Of a stretch of DNA of 64,000 nucleotides, positions 14,346 to 58,592 are shown in pieces. The DNA is from Escherichia phage vB_EcoM_EP57. Made by a program: the position numbers and the translations under genes. How positions within the stretch are numbered: position 1 is the first letter of the stretch; every line of letters starts with the position of its first letter. The stretch is taken from the sequence record OR544956; one strand, written 5' to 3'. The notes under the pieces are model-generated. The model was not told the DNA's origin. It made no database searches and saw only the letters and a program-made list of their open reading frames with translations.

Positions 14346-15140
14346 TTGAGCAAGTTGAATACACTTGATCAATATTACACTAACCCCGCTTATGCGGGGT
14401 TCTTATGTGATAAGATCAAAGAAATTTTTGGAGAGGAAGCTAACTACGTAGAACCATCTGCGGGAGAAGGAGCTTTCTCTTTTTGTTTTAAAAACATAAC
14501 TTCTTTTGATATTGATCCTAAGTTTGAAGATTGTATTGAGGCAGATTTTTTAGCTCAATCTGTTGAGTCTGTTGGTAGTGTAACTGCTTTTGTCGGTAAT
14601 CCTCCGTTTGGAAAAAATGCCAGTCTTGCCATTAAGTTCTTTAACCATTGTGCTGAAATGTTGGATAACGAAGGTGGTATTTGTTTTATCTTGCCTCGCA
14701 CATTTCAAAAAATCTTTTTTGCACACAAACTAAATCCCCACATGCATCTTCTTTACGAAGAAGAATGTCCAAAAGGATCTTTTATTCTTCATGGAGAACC
14801 TTGGGATGTTCCTTGTGTATTCCAGATATGGATTAAACGCAACGAGAAGCGTTCTCCCGTTGTTTTAGGAGAAAATCGACTGTTCGTATTAGGTAACAGT
14901 AAAGACTACGACATAGCCGTTAGGAGAGCGGGAGCAAGTGCAGGTAAAGTGTTATCAGAAGAAGATTCTTTATCTGAAGCATCTACCTACTTTTTAAAAG
15001 CCTTGACTTCTGATCTTAAAACACGTATCATTGAGGCTTACCCGTTACTTAAAGCTGAAGCTAGTAAAACTGCGGGAGTAAGAAGTTTAAGTTTAAAAGA
15101 ACTTCAGTGGGTTCTGGAGAACATTAGAAAGGAGGAATAG
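14346..15140 (+). CDS. DNA N6-adenine (amino) methyltransferase
   Basis: Motif I-like EPSAGEGAF and catalytic motif IV GNPPFG (NPPF/Y); TTG start after aaggagga. Confidence 0.6.
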   Translation: MSKLNTLDQYYTNPAYAGFLCDKIKEIFGEEANYVEPSAGEGAFSFCFKNITSFDIDPKFEDCIEADFLAQSVESVGSVTAFVGNPPFGKNASLAIKFFNHCAEMLDNEGGICFILPRTFQKIFFAHKLNPHMHLLYEEECPKGSFILHGEPWDVPCVFQIWIKRNEKRSPVVLGENRLFVLGNSKDYDIAVRRAGASAGKVLSEEDSLSEASTYFLKALTSDLKTRIIEAYPLLKAEASKTAGVRSLSLKELQWVLENIRKEE

Positions 15141-17977: not shown

Positions 17978-18154
17978 TGGGAAATGGTATCATGATTTGC
18001 TATAAAATTGTGCGTATTGTCGGAGACGAAGTTACCACTCGGTATTTTATGATAGAGTCTCAAGCCGATGAGGTTTACAATGACTGGCTTGAAAAAGGTG
18101 GATACGATTTTGTATCTAAAGAAACTTTCCGTTTAGAAGTATAAGGAGAAAACA

Positions 18155-26959: not shown

Positions 26960-27589
26960 TTAATCTATTTGCTTGAGAAGCGTACACATGCGTCCTGTTT
27001 CATCCCCAGTAGATTCCATGTACAGGGAACCTAAACCACCAATACCATGAGGCGGTTTGGTAGCATAATAAGAACTAAAACCAAAAGCTGATCCTGCTTT
27101 TGCTCCAAGACGGTAGCTACTAATGATAGGGAAAACACTTAGCAACTGTTCTAAAGCTTGATCAGATTGAAGACACAGGTTGTAGAAAAACACATCAAAG
27201 GTTTTATTCAAACCTACGTAAGTATTAAGCGTTTCACGCTCTGTTCCTGTGAAACGGGCGAAGATATCAATTATGTCACCACGAGTCCCCGATGAGGCTA
27301 CGCGGTAAGCCCTGATTTTTAATATTGTTCTATACTCTTCATCATCAGAGCCATTACGTTCGATCCCCATTTCTTCTCCTAAGATATCTAGGTATTTGCC
27401 TGTGGCTGTGGAGATCAAGCGGTGTTTAGCAAGATAGATCATTGCCTGATCTATCTTTTGCTTTTCACTGGATACGATGTAGAGGAGCTTGACAATGTTA
27501 GGAGAAGATTTAAAATCTTCAATCAGAAGGTTTTTAACGTCTTCATTGATACTGGCCCAAGTTGTTACATGGTCAACACTCACTGCCAT
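26960..27589 (-). CDS. Hypothetical baseplate-associated protein
   Basis: ORF track; position. Confidence 0.35.
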   Translation of the reverse strand: MAVSVDHVTTWASINEDVKNLLIEDFKSSPNIVKLLYIVSSEKQKIDQAMIYLAKHRLISTATGKYLDILGEEMGIERNGSDDEEYRTILKIRAYRVASSGTRGDIIDIFARFTGTERETLNTYVGLNKTFDVFFYNLCLQSDQALEQLLSVFPIISSYRLGAKAGSAFGFSSYYATKPPHGIGGLGSLYMESTGDETGRMCTLLKQID

Positions 27590-27591
27590 TT

Positions 27592-27933
27592 TTACACTCC
27601 ATACTCGTAAGAAATGTTATCAAGGTCAAAAGAAGGGACAACATTATAAGCAGGAACTATATTATTCTCTGTATATTTACTGTCATCCTCAGTATTAAGT
27701 TTAACATAAACACGAAGAGAAGTCAAGCGTCCAAAAGCAAGTGCTGCATAAATAACCCCTTTGATTTGATCGTTCGTTACTGAAGAACCTAATTCAAAGT
27801 AAGCTTGCAGGTTTTGTAAAGCTTCTACGATGTTTTGTTTTTCTGTTCCACTTAAAGTTGTTCCGTTGACAGTTTGATAAACAAGTTTTACAGAATACAT
27901 AGCAGAAGCACCTTTCTTCAGCACTCCCTCCAT
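27592..27933 (-). CDS. C-terminal segment of the baseplate J-like protein (different frame from 27794..28969)
   Basis: Overlaps 27794..27933 with the upstream ORF, whose last ~40 residues look out-of-frame. Confidence 0.35.
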   Translation of the reverse strand: MEGVLKKGASAMYSVKLVYQTVNGTTLSGTEKQNIVEALQNLQAYFELGSSVTNDQIKGVIYAALAFGRLTSLRVYVKLNTEDDSKYTENNIVPAYNVVPSFDLDNISYEYGV

Positions 27934-28969
27934 AAACTATAGTCTGGAAAGTCATAGCTGGAGCATGTTCTTGATCATGTAACGTAGGGTTATCATAAAT
28001 CTTCACCTTAGTAACACCATCTGTAAGTAACAGAGCTTTCACAATAGCTGCTCGTGTCCCTGCGTTAGCTTCGTCAACGTTGTCATTGAAACGAGAGCGG
28101 AATTCTGCGTCTGTCTCAACATCTCGACCAGGGGAAAATGAATAGAAGTTACCACTATCAAGATAACCTGTAAAGGTAGAAGATATCCCTGTAATAGACT
28201 CCACACCAACAGGATTGTATCCTTTCTCTGCTGCAACTACCGGAATCTCACTCCACTTGGTTCCAACCGGAACACTAGCATAAAATTTAATAGGAGTTAC
28301 CAGTCCCACTGGAGTATCACTGGTTAAAGAAGTAAAACCAATTGATAAGTTACCTGAATCAGAAAATACAAGACTACGATCAGCTTCTGTTAAATTTGCC
28401 TTGATAAAAGTTTCAAGATCGGTTATAAATGTAGAAGAACCAGGTGCAAGTGTTTTACTGTTTAGTCCTCCATCGACCGCACTTTGTGCATAAAAAGTAA
28501 TATTTGGAACACCTGTAGCAGTTGCATTAGCACGAGAGATTTGATAAGCTGCAATCTTAGCATTCAACATGGTTGGTGTGCTAACATAATAGTTCATATC
28601 ACTATCAGAGTTGAAGTAAATATCCGTGCCTAACTCATAAGTCCAAGCTGCTTTGTTATTACTCTTAACATATGCATAACCTGTACTTGCTGCTGCCCCT
28701 GCTCGATAGAAACCGCGTTTAGAAAAAATTTCGTCAAGATAAATACCTTCTGCGCCATCTAGTGTTTGAGTATTATAAACACCTTGCATACCTTCCCACA
28801 ATGTGTAATCTGTGTATGCAATTATTCTAAACAGTTGTCCGATCACAGTATCTTCAGAAGTGGCTGCATCTGCACCAAATGTGTTTTTTACTGCTGTCAT
28901 ATAATTGTTTAGAACATCGTCAAAAGTCGGGATTACAAATCCCGCATCTGTTAAACCATATTCGTCCAT
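27794..28969 (-). CDS. Baseplate J-like (gp6/gpJ-like) wedge protein, frame-disrupted near its C-terminus
   Basis: N-terminus MDEYGLTDAGFVIPTFDDVLNNYMTAVKN... resembles Baseplate_J family; C-terminus ERCFCYVFCKTCLSNCQRNN looks like frame noise. Confidence 0.45.
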   Translation of the reverse strand: MDEYGLTDAGFVIPTFDDVLNNYMTAVKNTFGADAATSEDTVIGQLFRIIAYTDYTLWEGMQGVYNTQTLDGAEGIYLDEIFSKRGFYRAGAAASTGYAYVKSNNKAAWTYELGTDIYFNSDSDMNYYVSTPTMLNAKIAAYQISRANATATGVPNITFYAQSAVDGGLNSKTLAPGSSTFITDLETFIKANLTEADRSLVFSDSGNLSIGFTSLTSDTPVGLVTPIKFYASVPVGTKWSEIPVVAAEKGYNPVGVESITGISSTFTGYLDSGNFYSFSPGRDVETDAEFRSRFNDNVDEANAGTRAAIVKALLLTDGVTKVKIYDNPTLHDQEHAPAMTFQTIVYGGSAEERCFCYVFCKTCLSNCQRNNFKWNRKTKHRRSFTKPASLL

Positions 28970-48286: not shown

Positions 48287-48314
48287 TAGAAAAATTAAAA
48301 AATATTAAATATTT

Positions 48315-49880
48315 TTAATTCGACAGGTTTTGTGCTGAAGGATCTAAAGCAGAAACAGTATCAGACGTTCCAGTTCCCGCTGTAGCTAAACCGTCTCCTG
48401 ATCGTGAAGTTTTGTCAGGCATATAGTTATCCATGAATTCAAAGAATTTCTCTTTATTGGCAACAATATCGTCAGGGATACGATATTCAAAACCAATTTT
48501 TTCAAGGAACTCGTTAATAACTTCTGGGGTTAAAGGTATTGCACCAGAGGCTACCAACTGCTGAATAGCTTTAGCATTTACTTCAATATCAGGATCACCC
48601 ATTTCACCACTGACAAACTTAGGCATATCTTCATCAGAAAGGAAGATATTGTTTAGTCGTAGTGTTTGAGGGATCAGTTGAGAGTTTATAGCTTCTACAA
48701 CAATATCTACATCTCGCTCAATAAAATGAGACAATAGTGTTTGTTTGTTGTCAGAAAGCGCAAAACTTCCTGCATCACCATCACCCATAATCAACACACC
48801 CGCACCAAAACGGTTATAAATATCTAGCTTGCGTTGTTTGATTAGTGCTTGAGTGTCAAACTGTTTACCCGTGCCATCAACACCTTGGAATACAAGATCG
48901 TATTGACGCATCACTGTGCCTTCATAAACGTCTGAAGGCAATACCATGTAGGCTTGCTCCCCAGAGTGCAGGTTAGCGATGTTGGCTTGAAGAACTCGAA
49001 GAGATTGTGCTTCATCCCCAGCAGGATCTAAAGATGCCCTGTTTAGAATGTCACTTGGAACCTTAAGAACTGGCATACCACCTAAATCTTTAGATACCCC
49101 AATAACCTCAAATTCCTGAATAAGAGATTTTTCACGCCAGCTACGATATACAGCTAAAAGCGGACTAACTCCTAGTGGGTTATTCTCTGTAATGTTGCTA
49201 CCAACAAATAAAACTTTACTGAAAGGAATTTCTTTAATACCAGTTTCTAAAGTTGTATTACCTGGAGCTAACATCGTATTGGTGATATTCTGGTTAACAG
49301 ATAGAATAGAACGTCCGTCTGCCGAATATGTAAAAGGTTGAGCCATGTGAAGAGTGTCTTGTGGTCTAAAAGCCAGTTTGGTTAATCGCCAATACCCAAA
49401 GTAAGGACTTTTAGGATCTTCATCCAACTCATAAACTTTCTCTGCGAATGCAAAACCATATTGCTTATATGTCAAAAGTGATCTAACATATTGACGTAGA
49501 GGGGCTTGCATATTGCGTAACATGTAATCAATAAACTTAGCAGCTTTTCTTGACTTTGCCGAGTTTACATTGTATTTTATCTTGAAATCAAAGAATGCTC
49601 TATCTACAAAGATATATGTAGCGTCAAGAGCAGTAGCTACATCAGGGTCTTCACCCATCTCTTTAAAAGTGCGAATACATTCTGGGAAACGAGTCTCATA
49701 AGGTTGCATGAAATTCGTAAATGCTTTGATTGAGTTTAATCCGATCGTTCCTATTTCAGGTGACAGGAGTAACGTTTTCTCTTTCTCTGCCTCTTTTGTT
49801 GGAGAGAGAGCAGCTTTATTTGCAGCACCTTTGTCCCAGTATTCTGACTTTTTAGTGTACGTTCTTTTTCCTGTTGACAC
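48315..49880 (-). CDS. Portal protein
   Basis: 521 aa, immediately downstream of the large terminase. Confidence 0.55.
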   Translation of the reverse strand: MSTGKRTYTKKSEYWDKGAANKAALSPTKEAEKEKTLLLSPEIGTIGLNSIKAFTNFMQPYETRFPECIRTFKEMGEDPDVATALDATYIFVDRAFFDFKIKYNVNSAKSRKAAKFIDYMLRNMQAPLRQYVRSLLTYKQYGFAFAEKVYELDEDPKSPYFGYWRLTKLAFRPQDTLHMAQPFTYSADGRSILSVNQNITNTMLAPGNTTLETGIKEIPFSKVLFVGSNITENNPLGVSPLLAVYRSWREKSLIQEFEVIGVSKDLGGMPVLKVPSDILNRASLDPAGDEAQSLRVLQANIANLHSGEQAYMVLPSDVYEGTVMRQYDLVFQGVDGTGKQFDTQALIKQRKLDIYNRFGAGVLIMGDGDAGSFALSDNKQTLLSHFIERDVDIVVEAINSQLIPQTLRLNNIFLSDEDMPKFVSGEMGDPDIEVNAKAIQQLVASGAIPLTPEVINEFLEKIGFEYRIPDDIVANKEKFFEFMDNYMPDKTSRSGDGLATAGTGTSDTVSALDPSAQNLSN

Positions 49881-55440: not shown

Positions 55441-55515
55441 TGGTGGCCCTGGCTGGTTTCGATCCAGCTACCTATCGGTTATGAGCCGACAGCTCTCCCA
55501 TTGAGCTACAGGGCC
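55441..55515 (-). tRNA. tRNA with anticodon CAT (Met or Ile2), second copy
   Basis: Acceptor GGCCCTG/CAGGGCC, D-stem GCTC/GAGC, anticodon loop CTCATAA. Confidence 0.6.
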
Positions 55516-55519
55516 ATAA

Positions 55520-55713
55520 ATGTGGTAACAGAGACGCTGACGATTGTAGAGAACCGCTACATTCTCTAAGACCAAGCCCAACTTTCAGCGTAAAAGTTCT
55601 TGAGCCGAGACTGTTCCTTTTCCTCTTTGGTAGCTAACCTCTGAAGAAGTAGTCTCTAACACTACCGCAGTGCAAGCCCCTCTTAACAAAAGTCAACGAC
55701 ACTGTTACCACAC
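55520..55713 (-). ncRNA. Candidate structured small RNA (about 190 nt) closed by a perfect 10-bp terminal stem, first transcript unit behind promoter 3
   Basis: Plus 55522-55531 gtggtaacag is the exact reverse complement of plus 55702-55711; lies between a promoter and the first tRNA; no ORF. Confidence 0.35.
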
Positions 55714-55724
55714 TTGATGAACGT

Positions 55725-55754
55725 ATCCTAACATATGAAGGATACGTTTGTCAA
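55725..55754 (-). promoter_or_regulatory. tRNA-locus promoter 3 (CTATTGACAA-18-TAGGAT)
   Basis: Minus strand, directly downstream of the 55762..56010 stop. Confidence 0.5.
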
Positions 55755-55761
55755 TAGTTAT

Positions 55762-56010
55762 TTAAGCATATTCTGCTACTTCTTCACTATCTTTCTTTTC
55801 CAGAAGAGCAACAACCAAAGCTTCTGCGTTAAAAGTATTAATTTCAAGATCCATCTCTCGCATCAGAGCCAAGAAATCAATAACTTTAACATCTTTAGTG
55901 ATTACAATAGAAGTTGTACCATTGTTTTCAGATGTGTATTTTTCTGGATGGAAAAGAAAAACTGCATTGCCGTTACCATCTTCAAACACGTGTTTTTCTA
56001 ATAGAGACAT
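55762..56010 (-). CDS. Hypothetical protein
   Basis: Strong ribosome-binding site tAGGAGGaacaATG. Confidence 0.45.
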   Translation of the reverse strand: MSLLEKHVFEDGNGNAVFLFHPEKYTSENNGTTSIVITKDVKVIDFLALMREMDLEINTFNAEALVVALLEKKDSEEVAEYA

Positions 56011-56018
56011 TGTTCCTC

Positions 56019-56270
56019 CTAATCTGTTAGTTGTTCGTCCTCTACCAAGTTTGACACGAGAACGTCTGTTATATATTGATGCTGATAAACCCTTTCGGGA
56101 CTATCATCAAAAGCCAAACCTGTGCAAATAGAACAGAGGTCTGATTCCTTGATGACTCCATTTTTATCACGTCTGGAGTGGTTTGTCAAATGCCTATTAC
56201 AAGCACGGCACCTAAAATAAAAGCTATTTTGCATATATCCTTCGAACCCCAAATGGGGAGTGATCGGCAT
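56019..56270 (-). CDS. Small Cys-rich protein
   Basis: CRACN ... CSIC. Confidence 0.35.
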   Translation of the reverse strand: MPITPHLGFEGYMQNSFYFRCRACNRHLTNHSRRDKNGVIKESDLCSICTGLAFDDSPERVYQHQYITDVLVSNLVEDEQLTD

Positions 56271-56307
56271 CTCCTCACTTCTAGTTTAGCACGAAGGATA
56301 TCTTAAG

Positions 56308-56505
56308 TCAACTAGGAATAATTTTATCCCTTTTGGTTTCATAACCAGTCCAATCTAAATCCTCCCAGCCTTCATCATCGTCTAACACATTGTCATCATC
56401 ATAAGATGCAATGTTATAAATAGAACGTGGATTACAAGACATACAATCTTTAATAGGCACATGATGCCATTTGCACGGATTCTCACTAATCATTGCACAC
56501 CTCAT
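56308..56505 (-). CDS. Small Cys-containing acidic protein
   Basis: ORF track. Confidence 0.3.
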   Translation of the reverse strand: MRCAMISENPCKWHHVPIKDCMSCNPRSIYNIASYDDDNVLDDDEGWEDLDWTGYETKRDKIIPS

Positions 56506-56514
56506 CTATAGATC

Positions 56515-56700
56515 AAGTATTATTTATAATAATTTATTATTTTATTTTTAATTGATAGAAGTTGATCTGTACGTACCAGTTCTGATACACTGTACCTGTT
56601 TGTTAGATCTAATAATTATTTATTATTAATATTTAATAATTATTAATCTAGTACGGAGTACAGTACTTGAGTACAGAGTACTACATCAACGACCTAAAAC
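56515..56700. repeat. AT-rich repeat region at the switch between divergent gene blocks (candidate origin or divergent promoter region)
   Basis: Direct repeat TAATAATTATT at 56601 and 56626, imperfect palindrome around 56596-56650, and clustered GTACAG/GTACGG repeats at 56650-56690. Confidence 0.35.
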
Positions 56701-56915
56701 CTTAACTCGCTGCGCTCGTTAATAGATTTCTAGGGTAACATACTTCGAACACAAAAGTCAAGAGTTTTATTAAAAATTATTTTCTGTGTGCAAAAACCTT
56801 GCTTAAACAGGTAGCAATAGTATTAAGAGGCTGTAGAGCAAGTTTACTTACTAGGTAAGGTGATTTATCATCTTATATATAAAAAGTGCGTCAGAGACGC
56901 GTTTAGGAGGCTAGA

Positions 56916-57332
56916 ATGAGATTTACAAGACAAGAGGTAGTTGTACTTGACGAAGCAATGACAATGATCGTCTTTTACTATGAGGATATCTTCTGTGCAG
57001 CATATCATTTAAATGATATTCAGATTGAATGGAAGCAGATAGCATTCCTGTTGGACAAGAGTAATCATTTGGATGGCTTTGAGTATTTGGAGTGGGATGG
57101 TGCAAAGGAAGTTAAAATTGTAGGGTTAAATCACGATCAGATTGTTGACATGCAATGTAAGTTGTGTCATTATCAGTTCTCAAACAATCCTGGCAACAAT
57201 TGTTCTGATTTTTGCCATGTGTGTGGTTCACGATGTTCTGGTAAGCTACTTTTGAAGACACAAGATGTGTCCTACAGCCGTGTTACGCTTACTGGCGACC
57301 ATACCCCAATCATGGAGTACGTAAAGAAATGA
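56916..57332 (+). CDS. Cys-rich hypothetical protein
   Basis: CKLCHY ... CHVCGSRC; taggaggctagaATG. Confidence 0.4.
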   Translation: MRFTRQEVVVLDEAMTMIVFYYEDIFCAAYHLNDIQIEWKQIAFLLDKSNHLDGFEYLEWDGAKEVKIVGLNHDQIVDMQCKLCHYQFSNNPGNNCSDFCHVCGSRCSGKLLLKTQDVSYSRVTLTGDHTPIMEYVKK

Positions 57333-58132
57333 GCAACTATCCAATTACAGGCGTAACCTATTCTTGTGTAGCAAAAGGTGGTTTATATACAGTAGTGGAA
57401 TTTCCAAAACCTGCCGGAATATCTAAAGTGTTTGATCCTGTGGTTATCTATGAAGATCTTAGAACAGGTCAACGTTACTGGAGATTTGTGAATGACTTTT
57501 TAGATCGTATGGAGGTAGTAAGTGGCGAAAACACCGAAGAAGTTATCAAAGCCAACGTTACTAAGAAACCGAAAAACGAGGTTCTCAAAGTAGCCAAATC
57601 AGTTCCTAAGAAAGATAAATTTGATACGGAGGCATTCGTCTTTGACACACCAATCGAGAAGATTGAAGAAGCGTTGCAACGTCTTGAGGAGCAGGAGGCA
57701 GATCCAATGGCTGAACCACTCGCTGAAGCAAAAAACATTGGTCGTTCCAATGAAACAACACCAGAAGAACAAGCTGAACTTGAAGCTTTTGCCAAATGGA
57801 CAAAACAGTTAAAGAATGGCTATTATAAAACAAAAGAAGAAGCTGAAAACCATGTTCCTTCCACACCAATGAAATGCCAGGATTATAAAGATTATCCTGA
57901 AAGGGTTGTGTTCCCTGGTTATGCACAATACAAACTGAACGGGTTACGTTCTATGATTAACATGAAAGGAGAGTGTTTATCAAAAGCTGGGGAAGTGTAC
58001 AACCTGCCACCTCATTGGAAAGGTATTCCAAACTTTATTAGTGAAGTTGTTGGTCATCCTCTTGATGGTGAAGTGTTTGCTGGGTTAGGTGTCCTTAGTC
58101 TGCAACAAATTAACAGTGCTTGCAGTAGTTGA
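57329..58132 (+). CDS. ATP-dependent DNA ligase-like protein, N-terminal and adenylation part; frame changes near 58090-58130
   Basis: Motif I-like YKLNGLR (KxDG-type with N in place of D) and motif III-like LDGEVFA. Confidence 0.45.
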   Translation: MSNYPITGVTYSCVAKGGLYTVVEFPKPAGISKVFDPVVIYEDLRTGQRYWRFVNDFLDRMEVVSGENTEEVIKANVTKKPKNEVLKVAKSVPKKDKFDTEAFVFDTPIEKIEEALQRLEEQEADPMAEPLAEAKNIGRSNETTPEEQAELEAFAKWTKQLKNGYYKTKEEAENHVPSTPMKCQDYKDYPERVVFPGYAQYKLNGLRSMINMKGECLSKAGEVYNLPPHWKGIPNFISEVVGHPLDGEVFAGLGVLSLQQINSACSS

Positions 58133-58592
58133 AGATTATGGTCTTGATGAGCTTATTTGTGTAGTTCATACAGAGTATATTGAAAACCAAGAACAGTTTG
58201 ATGCTTTCTATGAAAAAGCTTTACTTGAGAAAGCTGAAGGTGTAGTATATCGTAATGCTCACGGAGTTTACGAATTTGATAAACGTTCTTATGACGTTAT
58301 TAAACGTAAGCCTCGCCATACGCTTGAAGTTAAAGTAATAAATTCAAAAAGTGATAAAAATGGCGATGGAGTGTTGACAGGTGAGATGGAAAATGGTAAA
58401 GTAGTCGAATTCTTAATGCGTAAAGATGCTCATGAGACTATCAATTATCGTAAAGCAGAGAATGCTTCTACCTTGATTAATCAGTTCGTTGAAATAGAGT
58501 ATGAAGAATTTTCAGATGAAGGTATTCCAACAAAACCTGTTGGTGTTCGTATTCGAGAAATGATCCCAGGCACTTGGGAACCAGCAGAATAA
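58089..58592 (+). CDS. DNA ligase C-terminal part (motif IV/V and OB-fold region), +1 frame relative to 57329..58132
   Basis: EGVVYRN ... KPRHTLEVKV pattern typical of ligase motifs IV-VI. Confidence 0.45.
   Translation: MSLVCNKLTVLAVVEDYGLDELICVVHTEYIENQEQFDAFYEKALLEKAEGVVYRNAHGVYEFDKRSYDVIKRKPRHTLEVKVINSKSDKNGDGVLTGEMENGKVVEFLMRKDAHETINYRKAENASTLINQFVEIEYEEFSDEGIPTKPVGVRIREMIPGTWEPAE

Follow-up and report, generated by a model that had tools for sequence, protein, structure and literature searches.

A probable bidirectional sigma70 promoter region with exceptionally long A/T-only tracts at a divergent gene junction of a phAPEC8-like coliphage

A/T-rich upstream tracts are familiar features of divergent promoter regions, as exemplified by back-to-back sigma70 promoters with A/T-rich UP tracts, such as rrnB P1 and many divergent operons. 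For phage rV5, bidirectional promoters were predicted to exist at the divergent junctions of the genome, and changes in GC skew were found to track only the direction of transcription (Kropinski et al. 2013, PMC3606486). Here we analyze a divergent junction in Escherichia phage vB_EcoM_EP57, within a 64,000-nt stretch of sequence record OR544956 (hereafter, the window), and specifically the segment 56515-56700, where two long A/T-only tracts, a palindrome and a cluster of GTAC sites lie between a leftward and a rightward gene block. Judging from the sequence, the leftward tRNA/structural block is probably separated from the rightward block of DNA metabolism by a compound bidirectional sigma70 promoter and control region, which is, as such, an unusually extreme example of an A/T-tract divergent promoter region. 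The likeness to rV5 (PMC3606486) extends to the four-block architecture, the expected bidirectional promoters and a skew that tracks transcription; the difference is that the rV5 promoters were found at one of the two divergent junctions, whereas the present candidates are located at the other kind, the junctions of the two phages being equated by analogy of layout only.

The window represents a phAPEC8-like myovirus (Phapecoctavirus, Stephanstirmvirinae) with a genome of about 150 kb. A megablast search with 55500-58200 matched 114 phage records, with the top identity at 97-98%, and a BLAST search with the whole window produced about 99% identity to phage tuntematon (MN850618.1), interrupted by many clean deletions. 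According to the tuntematon annotation, the genes form four blocks, with two divergent and two convergent junctions, and the studied region is one of the two divergent ones. The alignments included 11 close relatives along with the diverged phages phiWec188/179, and the equivalent junction was additionally read in VEcB and FKP3, members of the sister genus Justusliebigvirus. The predicted leftward promoters P_L1 and P_L2, the predicted rightward promoters P_R1 and P_R2 and the elements that adjoin them are as follows.

56494-56915, no strand: the whole divergent intergenic region, between the phAPEC8_00140 homologue (minus strand, ATG at 56493) and the first rightward gene (ATG at 56916).
56511-56516, minus strand: predicted P_L1 -35 hexamer, TTGATC; its -10 (TACAGT in relatives) was lost with a 37-nt segment at 56503/56504.
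56518-56553, no strand: AT block 1, 36 nt of A/T only, separating the -35 hexamers of the back-to-back P_L1 and P_R2; a proposed shared UP-element-like region.
56562-56591, plus strand: predicted P_R2, TTGATC, 18-nt spacer, TACACT, with two GTAC sites in the spacer and one at the start region.
56732-56761, minus strand: predicted P_L2 with an extended -10, TTGACT, 18-nt spacer ending in TGT, TACCCT; it points into the AGTAC array and the palindrome.
56765-56783, no strand: an A/T-only tract of 19 nt that immediately precedes the P_L2 -35, reading aataaaactc-TTGACT, like other promoters of the same family.
56799-56826, plus strand: a possible, weakly supported extra rightward promoter read from sequence and alignment, TTGCTT, 16-nt spacer, TATTAA.
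56843-56871, plus strand: predicted P_R1, TTTACT, 17-nt spacer, TATCAT, before the first rightward gene; the FKP3 equivalent is TTGACA-17-TATCAT.
Near 56598 (plus strand), 56725 (minus strand) and 56878 (plus strand): transcription starts predicted from the promoter map.

A stringent scan (TTGnnn matching in 4 or more of 6 positions, 16-18-nt spacer, TAnnnT) yielded 3-6 matches per intergenic region of about 400 nt, compared to about one in shuffled sequences. Pairs of -35 and -10 elements with the 16-18-bp spacing expected of divergent sigma70 promoters are present on both strands and are directed toward the flanking genes (for P_L1, in the relatives). P_L1, P_R2 and P_L2 occupy equivalent positions in all five lineages, from two genera, although the intervening sequence has diverged. 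The P_L1 equivalents are TTGATC-17-TACAGT in tuntematon, TTGACT-18-TAGAGT in phiWec, TTGACT-17-TAGAGT in VEcB and TTGACC-17-TACACT in FKP3; those of P_R2 are TTGATC-18-TACTAT in phiWec, TTGTTA-17-TAGTAT in VEcB and TTGATT-17-TATAGT in FKP3. P_L2 is nearly invariant across the two genera and fits TTGAC(T/A)-17/18-TGn-TACCCT in all lineages. The -10 of the extra rightward promoter was remodelled by a 21-nt deletion in the window (phiWec equivalent, TTGTGT-16-TATAGT). On the 3' side of P_R1, a hairpin, GCGTCAGAGACGC (56888-56900), is followed by the Shine-Dalgarno sequence AGGAGG (56905-56910), and GGTAAGGTGATT, near P_R1, is conserved across the genera. One further candidate, TTGATG-18-TACTGT on the minus strand (56689..56660), was dropped, being not conserved in phAPEC8; likenesses of GCTCGTTAA to boxA and of TTGCTTAA to a MotA box were not used, as each either deviates at a key consensus position or lacks conservation among the relatives.

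P_L2 belongs to a promoter family that recurs in the window. The pattern TTGAC[AT]-N14/15-TGn-TAnnnT has 11 matches, P_L2 included, against 0.3 in shuffled sequences, and all are co-oriented with the local genes. The pattern scan located the family members as follows.

53396, 54249 (variant spacer), 55167, 55754, 56311, 56761, 27726, 32697 and 38166, minus strand: extended -10 family (aataaaacta-TTGACA-N15-TGT-TAnnnT).
18876, 58374 and 60491, plus strand: plus-strand members of the extended -10 family.

Five of the copies (53396, 54249, 55167, 55754 and 56311) lie among the tRNA and small genes immediately to the left of the studied region and share the upstream context aataaaac(t)n, which is found also at P_L2. 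Family membership and positional conservation in two genera thus support one half of what the sequence-only reading had proposed for this locus, namely, a divergent regulatory region, with sigma70-type promoters facing both ways.

The gap between the -35 hexamers of P_L1 and P_R2 is 43-57 nt long and encompasses an A/T-only tract in every lineage (16-35 nt in phiWec188/179, VEcB and FKP3), the sequence of which has turned over. Because an A/T-only tract fills this gap in every lineage, AT block 1 appears to be an upstream region that the two back-to-back promoters share. We propose that it would serve as a common UP-like element for leftward transcription from P_L1 and rightward transcription from P_R2, acting on the alpha subunits of RNA polymerase, with P_L1 probably crippled in the window by the 37-nt deletion and with P_L2 and P_R1 providing a second promoter in each direction; that the predicted promoters fire is likewise inferred. 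The arrangement shares with the back-to-back sigma70/UP systems -35 elements 43-57 bp apart with pure A/T between them, and differs from these in that the A/T sequence is uninterrupted over 36 nt, that the promoters are predicted ones and that the other divergent junction of the phage lacks such a tract. At that other junction of tuntematon, TTGATC-16-TATCAT and TTGACA-16-TAAGAT stand back to back, with TTGATC in the same AGATCAAGT context as in P_L1; the A/T tract is therefore special to the studied junction. The third-longest A/T-only run of the window (48290-48320) also adjoins a TTGACA -35.

P_R2 and P_L2 face each other, with 141 bp between their -10 elements in the window and 104-112 bp in the other lineages. 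Two predicted promoters opposed across about 105-140 bp in all five lineages are reminiscent of the pR/pL pairs of P2 and 186; however, the latter control lysis or lysogeny in temperate phages, through repressors that are known, whereas the present phage is virulent and each of the opposed promoters has an outer partner with the same direction. The interval between P_R2 and P_L2, which would be transcribed from both strands, holds the following elements.

56589-56664, no strand: a 76-nt imperfect palindrome centred at 56627/56628; the outer arms, ACTGTACCTGT and CGGAGTACAGT, bear GTAC, and the inner arms are AT block 2.
56605-56649, no strand: AT block 2, a palindrome of about 46 bp, AGATCT...AATCT, with a 38-nt A/T-only run and both copies of TAATAATTATT(A); found only in the phAPEC8-type lineage.
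56650-56682, no strand: the AGTAC array, five copies in 33 nt, consisting of two 12-mers, AGTACRGAGTAC, 20 nt apart and one copy between them; found only in the phAPEC8-type lineage.
56702-56722, minus strand: the hairpin box TTAA-CGAGCGCAGCGAG-TTAA (minus-strand reading), with a GCGNAGC mini-hairpin core and tandem G.A pairs, at about +5 to +25 of the predicted P_L2 transcript.

Within the proposed control region, the palindrome and the AGTAC array may modulate the balance between P_R2 and P_L2, either by binding a symmetric protein, as an operator, or by forming a long AU-rich hairpin in both leaders. The promoter map appears well supported by the sequence comparisons; the role of the palindrome and the array is put forward far more tentatively.

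The A/T-richness of the segment, pointed out already in the sequence-only reading, is extreme: the runs at 56518-56553 (36 nt) and 56610-56647 (38 nt) are the two longest A/T-only runs both in the window and in the complete tuntematon genome, whereas in 200 Markov simulations the longest run averaged 20 nt and never exceeded 33 nt. Duplex stability over 150 bp reaches its genome-wide minimum at 56504-56653, about 5 standard deviations off the mean, and the locus is the least stable DNA of the whole 150 kb at the 40-, 60- and 150-bp scales alike. The 11-nt repeat TAATAATTATT is present as claimed, in exact copies at 56610-56620 and 56634-56644 and nowhere else in the 64 kb; the spacing had been given as 25 nt, and measures 24 nt from start to start, with a 13-nt gap. 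Both copies are embedded in the self-complementary 12-mer TAATAATTATTA (TAATAA/TTATTA), which makes the repeat both a direct and an inverted one. Repeat and palindrome analysis also validated the imperfect palindrome, the arms of which, 56610-56627 and 56628-56645, are 89% complementary. The 76-nt palindrome folds as DNA at -12.5 kcal/mol (z = -4.9 against shuffled sequences); for the RNA leaders, the fold over the palindrome has z = -3.4 on the minus strand and is not significant on the plus strand. At the locus, Tandem Repeats Finder detected just a 17-nt unit in 2.2 copies, of low-complexity AT, and an Rfam scan of the locus gave nothing credible, only sub-threshold matches to miRNA models that are attributable to the palindromes. 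A motif, TGT(C/T)T(G/T)T(T/A)AGATC, located at 56600-56610, just 3' of P_R2, is kept in both genera (phiWec188, VEcB) despite diverged surroundings. A likeness of TAATAATTATTA to a Fur 7-1-7 box was left aside, failing a key consensus position or conservation in the relatives.

Clustering of GTAC motifs, also noticed in the sequence-only reading, holds up under counting. Eight sites (56569, 56573, 56592, 56651, 56658, 56663, 56671 and 56678) fall within 114 nt, out of 49 in the window, compared to 227 predicted by base composition; at the density observed, a cluster like this has a Poisson probability of about 8e-14. Tuntematon has 150 GTAC sites against 531 expected, an approximately 4-fold depletion, and every other 200-nt stretch of the genome contains at most 4. 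In the relatives, the region has 10 sites, two more being located in the segment deleted from the window, and these are kept across more than 10 isolates. The three GATC sites of the region are not significant. A likeness of the GTAC array to a LexA box was not used, on account of a missing key consensus position or of non-conservation in relatives. GTAC is one of several short palindromes avoided in this genome (observed/expected ratios: GTAC 0.22, CCGG 0.25, CGCG 0.25, GGCC 0.31, CTAG 0.37, GCGC 0.46), which is consistent with restriction avoidance in a phage with a broad host range.

Given the statistics of A/T runs, GTAC sites and duplex stability, the region is real, unique and far beyond chance; since GTAC is purged elsewhere in the genome, the element that combines GTAC sites with the A/T palindrome, which is unique in the genome, must be under selection. 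This bears on the alternative that the locus has no function beyond spacing, with low-complexity A/T sequence and palindromes having arisen by slippage and duplication in weakly constrained intergenic DNA. The region is indeed a hot spot of insertions and deletions. The window lacks 37 nt and 21 nt, including the P_L1 -10 and two GTAC sites; phage nieznany has lost 83 nt, comprising two GTAC sites together with P_R2 and the greater part of AT block 1; in phAPEC8, 3 nt are missing from AT block 2 and the AGTAC array differs by two substitutions; and insertions of 11 nt (BI-EHEC) and 7-9 nt (anhysbys and UP17) occur in the intergenic region. Moreover, the palindrome (AT block 2) and the AGTAC array are restricted to the phAPEC8-type lineage, phiWec188/179, VEcB and FKP3 having unrelated GTAY- or GATC-rich sequence in their place. 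Nevertheless, the absence of function seems improbable, considering that ten sites have been kept in more than 10 isolates of a phage that has purged GTAC about 4-fold genome-wide, and that an A/T-only tract is found at the same position in two genera despite the turnover of the sequence.

These variants also bear on a role in replication, the other half of the earlier proposal. Because parts of 56515-56700 are lineage-specific and natural deletion variants exist, no sub-element of this segment is conserved in the manner of an essential replicator. P_L2 and its downstream box, on the other hand, have hardly changed between genera. Iteron origins contain at least 3 directly repeated initiator sites of about 17-22 bp, usually in helical phase. 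An origin of this classical type, as in lambda ori or plasmids, with TAATAATTATT and/or the GTAC motifs as the initiator sites that open adjacent A/T-rich DNA, would account for repeats adjoining an A/T-rich unwinding element, both highly non-random and the latter with the lowest duplex stability in the genome, and for the two AGTACRGAGTAC 12-mers placed 20 nt, or about two helical turns, apart. However, and in this the locus departs from lambda ori and plasmid oriV, each repeat has only two copies, the two copies of the self-palindromic A/T repeat are the halves of one palindrome, the AGTAC units are spaced by 7, 5, 8 and 7 nt, that is, out of helical phase, and the motifs are lineage-specific. 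Among the neighbouring ORFs (open reading frames), no initiator-like gene was detected, the PHROG matches being to families of unknown function, ligases or pyrophosphohydrolases. A single DnaA box with one mismatch (56787-56795) and no DnaA cluster was found in the region, with counts at the chance level, and the IHF consensus, likewise at the chance level in counts, is missing there. The iteron-like origin put forward in the sequence-only reading is thus not sustained, and we regard it as highly improbable. GC skew, which had been suggested as a check, was computed for the window and for the full tuntematon genome and is uninformative on the origin, because in tuntematon its sign changes at all four strand switches, tracking the coding strand.

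Tandem repeats proper are found elsewhere in the non-coding DNA of tuntematon, at positions not covered by the window: 2.8 copies of a 29-nt unit at 18061-18140, each with a 19-bp perfect palindrome, AATGAGAATCATTCTCATT, which resembles a Fur box, and 2.7 copies of a 30-nt unit at 4-83. These arrays are better iteron-like candidates than the studied region.

In T4 oriF/oriG and the T7 primary origin, a promoter is followed directly downstream by an easily melted A/T-rich tract. By analogy, a transcript from P_R2 or P_L2 might form R-loops in the A/T tracts, with divergent transcription from P_L1 and P_R2 adding negative supercoiling and with a GCGCAGC mini-hairpin on the displaced strand that could admit primase; such a transcription-activated origin would coexist with the promoter role. 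The locus comprises the least stable DNA, the two longest A/T-only runs and the unique cis element of the genome, and AT block 2 begins about 10 nt past the predicted start of P_R2, which resembles the T4 and T7 arrangement, although, unlike in those systems, this downstream tract is confined to one lineage, the phAPEC8-type, and is known here from sequence. The phage encodes its own polymerase and primase/helicase, according to the tuntematon annotation, in which no initiator is recognised, and GCGNAGC mini-hairpins are documented at initiation sites (PMC13037366). Set against this are the absence of AT block 2 and the AGTAC array from phiWec188/179 and Justusliebigvirus, the existence of nieznany without AT block 1 and P_R2 (no replicator-like conservation, unless origins are redundant), the explanation of the skew at the four switches by transcription direction, the distance of about 40 kb between the locus and the replication genes, and the competition from the true non-coding tandem repeats elsewhere in the genome. 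On balance, we consider an origin of this kind unlikely, although it deserves to be kept in view.

The mini-hairpin itself lies beside P_L2. On the minus strand, 56702-56737 reads TACCCTA-N13-TTAA-CGAGCGCAGCGAG-TTAA, and the 13-mer, CGA-GCG(C/A)AGC-GAG, consists of a GC/GNA/GC core, tandem G.A pairs and a closing C-G pair; the middle loop base is the sole variable position (C in the window, phiWec and VEcB; A in FKP3 and others). Mini-hairpins of the GCGNAGC type have been described at the complementary-strand origin of G4, at RSF1010 ssiA and at the promoters of the N4 virion RNA polymerase (PMC13037366); the 13-mer beside the studied region holds the same core and differs in its position, which immediately follows a sigma70-type -10, on the strand that is non-template for the predicted P_L2. 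A scan of IMG/VR with the pattern TACCCTA-N(4-30)-CGAGCG(A/C)AGCGAG identified 40 loci (L021-L060; notably L037, 10316-10373, and L058, 12029-12166), from other Stephanstirmvirinae, among which the module hardly varies, and from several unrelated groups. By a rough estimate, so short a variable-gap pattern could yield on the order of ten chance matches in a collection of this size, so some of the singleton matches may be fortuitous. About 25 of the contigs are related to Pelagibacter phage HTVC027P and carry two copies facing outward at a strand switch beside the terminase gene. In phage PD06, a second copy of the P_L2 module lies inside a co-directional gene array, where it has the appearance of an internal promoter followed by a leader hairpin. 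In many cases, the stem of the 13-mer is lengthened by its flanks, with varying sequence (TTAA/TTAA, GGG/CCC, CCC/GGG, CC-A/T-GG), and Rfam does not include the module, a search with a marine-phage copy having produced no credible match.

Methylation enters into two of the remaining alternatives. In BI-EHEC (OL505078.1), 13 of the 23 GTAC sites aligned to 36.8-64 kb of the window read GTAT, ATAC or another variant; most of the changes are C-to-T and on one strand, the background divergence is 1-2%, and the assembly is noisy and rich in indels. The pattern resembles systematic miscalling at a modified base, so the phage may methylate GTAC cytosines, the alternative being selection against GTAC. 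The phage carries several methyltransferase genes; for three annotated DNA methyltransferase candidates (14346-15140 in the window; 27498-28007 and 34418-35101 in L015), one with an NPPF motif and another with FGFPPC, there were no Pfam hits at E <=0.001, and a PDB sequence search with the annotated 'Dcm' gave no match. With both searches empty, GTAC specificity is not assignable to these enzymes.

A packaging or terminus site like P1 pac, in which clusters of methylatable GTAC would flank an A/T-rich region cleaved by the terminase under the control of methylation, would fit the unique cluster of a palindromic 4-mer on both sides of the A/T tracts, the location of the locus at the head of the transcription unit with the terminase genes, about 4 kb downstream, the BI-EHEC miscall pattern, as expected of modified GTAC cytosines, and the several methyltransferase genes. 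However, GTAC methylation is an indirect deduction, and the cluster is absent in phiWec188/179. Furthermore, in BME3, a phage of the sister genus, the ends mapped with PhageTerm are a 342-bp direct terminal repeat within a long non-coding stretch of the block of small early genes (PMC12210895). These are the only mapped ends in the subfamily, and they lie far from the equivalent of the studied junction, which weakens the pac-like reading; overall, we find it barely credible.

GATC clusters act in methylation-sensitive control at oriC and P1 pac. A composite of several of the above ideas, in which the opposed and divergent promoters would melt the least stable DNA, priming would take place at the mini-hairpin of the displaced strand, and the GTAC cluster, kept in spite of GTAC avoidance in the genome and possibly methylated by a phage enzyme, would provide methylation-sensitive control, is conceivable by analogy with those systems; we judge it quite unlikely.

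The reading of the locus as a bidirectional sigma70 control region faces several difficulties of its own. P_R2 and P_L1 are moderate matches (TTGATC with TACACT or TACAGT and 17-18-nt spacers), and A/T-rich DNA easily yields promoter-like matches of this kind. UP elements are about 20 nt long; the promoter model leaves unexplained the 36-38 nt of pure A/T, a tract that the other divergent junction lacks, as well as the survival of ten GTAC sites in a genome that purges GTAC. TACCCTA and the hairpin box are strictly kept in unrelated phages without a TTGAC -35, which suggests that this element has a role beyond that of a sigma70 -10. No binding protein was found, the neighbouring small proteins having no recognisable DNA-binding domain, and literature searches turned up no transcriptome or mapped transcription starts. 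For mapped promoters, origin or termini, these searches returned nothing specific to Phapecoctavirus or phAPEC8, and the record annotations inspected list no promoters, starts or origin.

The gene context of the junction is as follows. On the left, the minus strand carries three small genes, 10 clustered tRNA genes and the genes for terminase and structural proteins; on the right, the plus strand carries small genes followed by those for ligase, exonucleases, ThyX and RNR. The ATG at 56493, with the Shine-Dalgarno sequence GAGGTG, is the start of the left gene; the sequence-only reading had placed the end of the leftward block at 56505, where an ATG arose through the 37-nt deletion peculiar to the window. 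With this and the 21-nt deletion, the intergenic region is 58 nt shorter than in the relatives. Compared to tuntematon, the window has at least 16 clean deletions overall. A deletion of about 200 nt merges three small genes into a 138-aa ORF (56916-57332), another, of 4045 nt at 57721/57722, eliminates about 14 genes, with the DNA ligase now divided between 57329-58132 and 58089-58592, and several more fall within the tail-fibre genes (20.2-29.5 kb).

Phapecoctavirus and its relatives are widely used as therapeutic coliphages, and the present analysis supplies candidate start sites together with a map of one of their two divergent control regions. It also demonstrates that the skew-based argument for an origin fails for a genome of such architecture, and brings to light a small hairpin module common to unrelated phages. 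Should the origin reading prove true, this would be the first origin for Stephanstirmvirinae, the rV5-like group.

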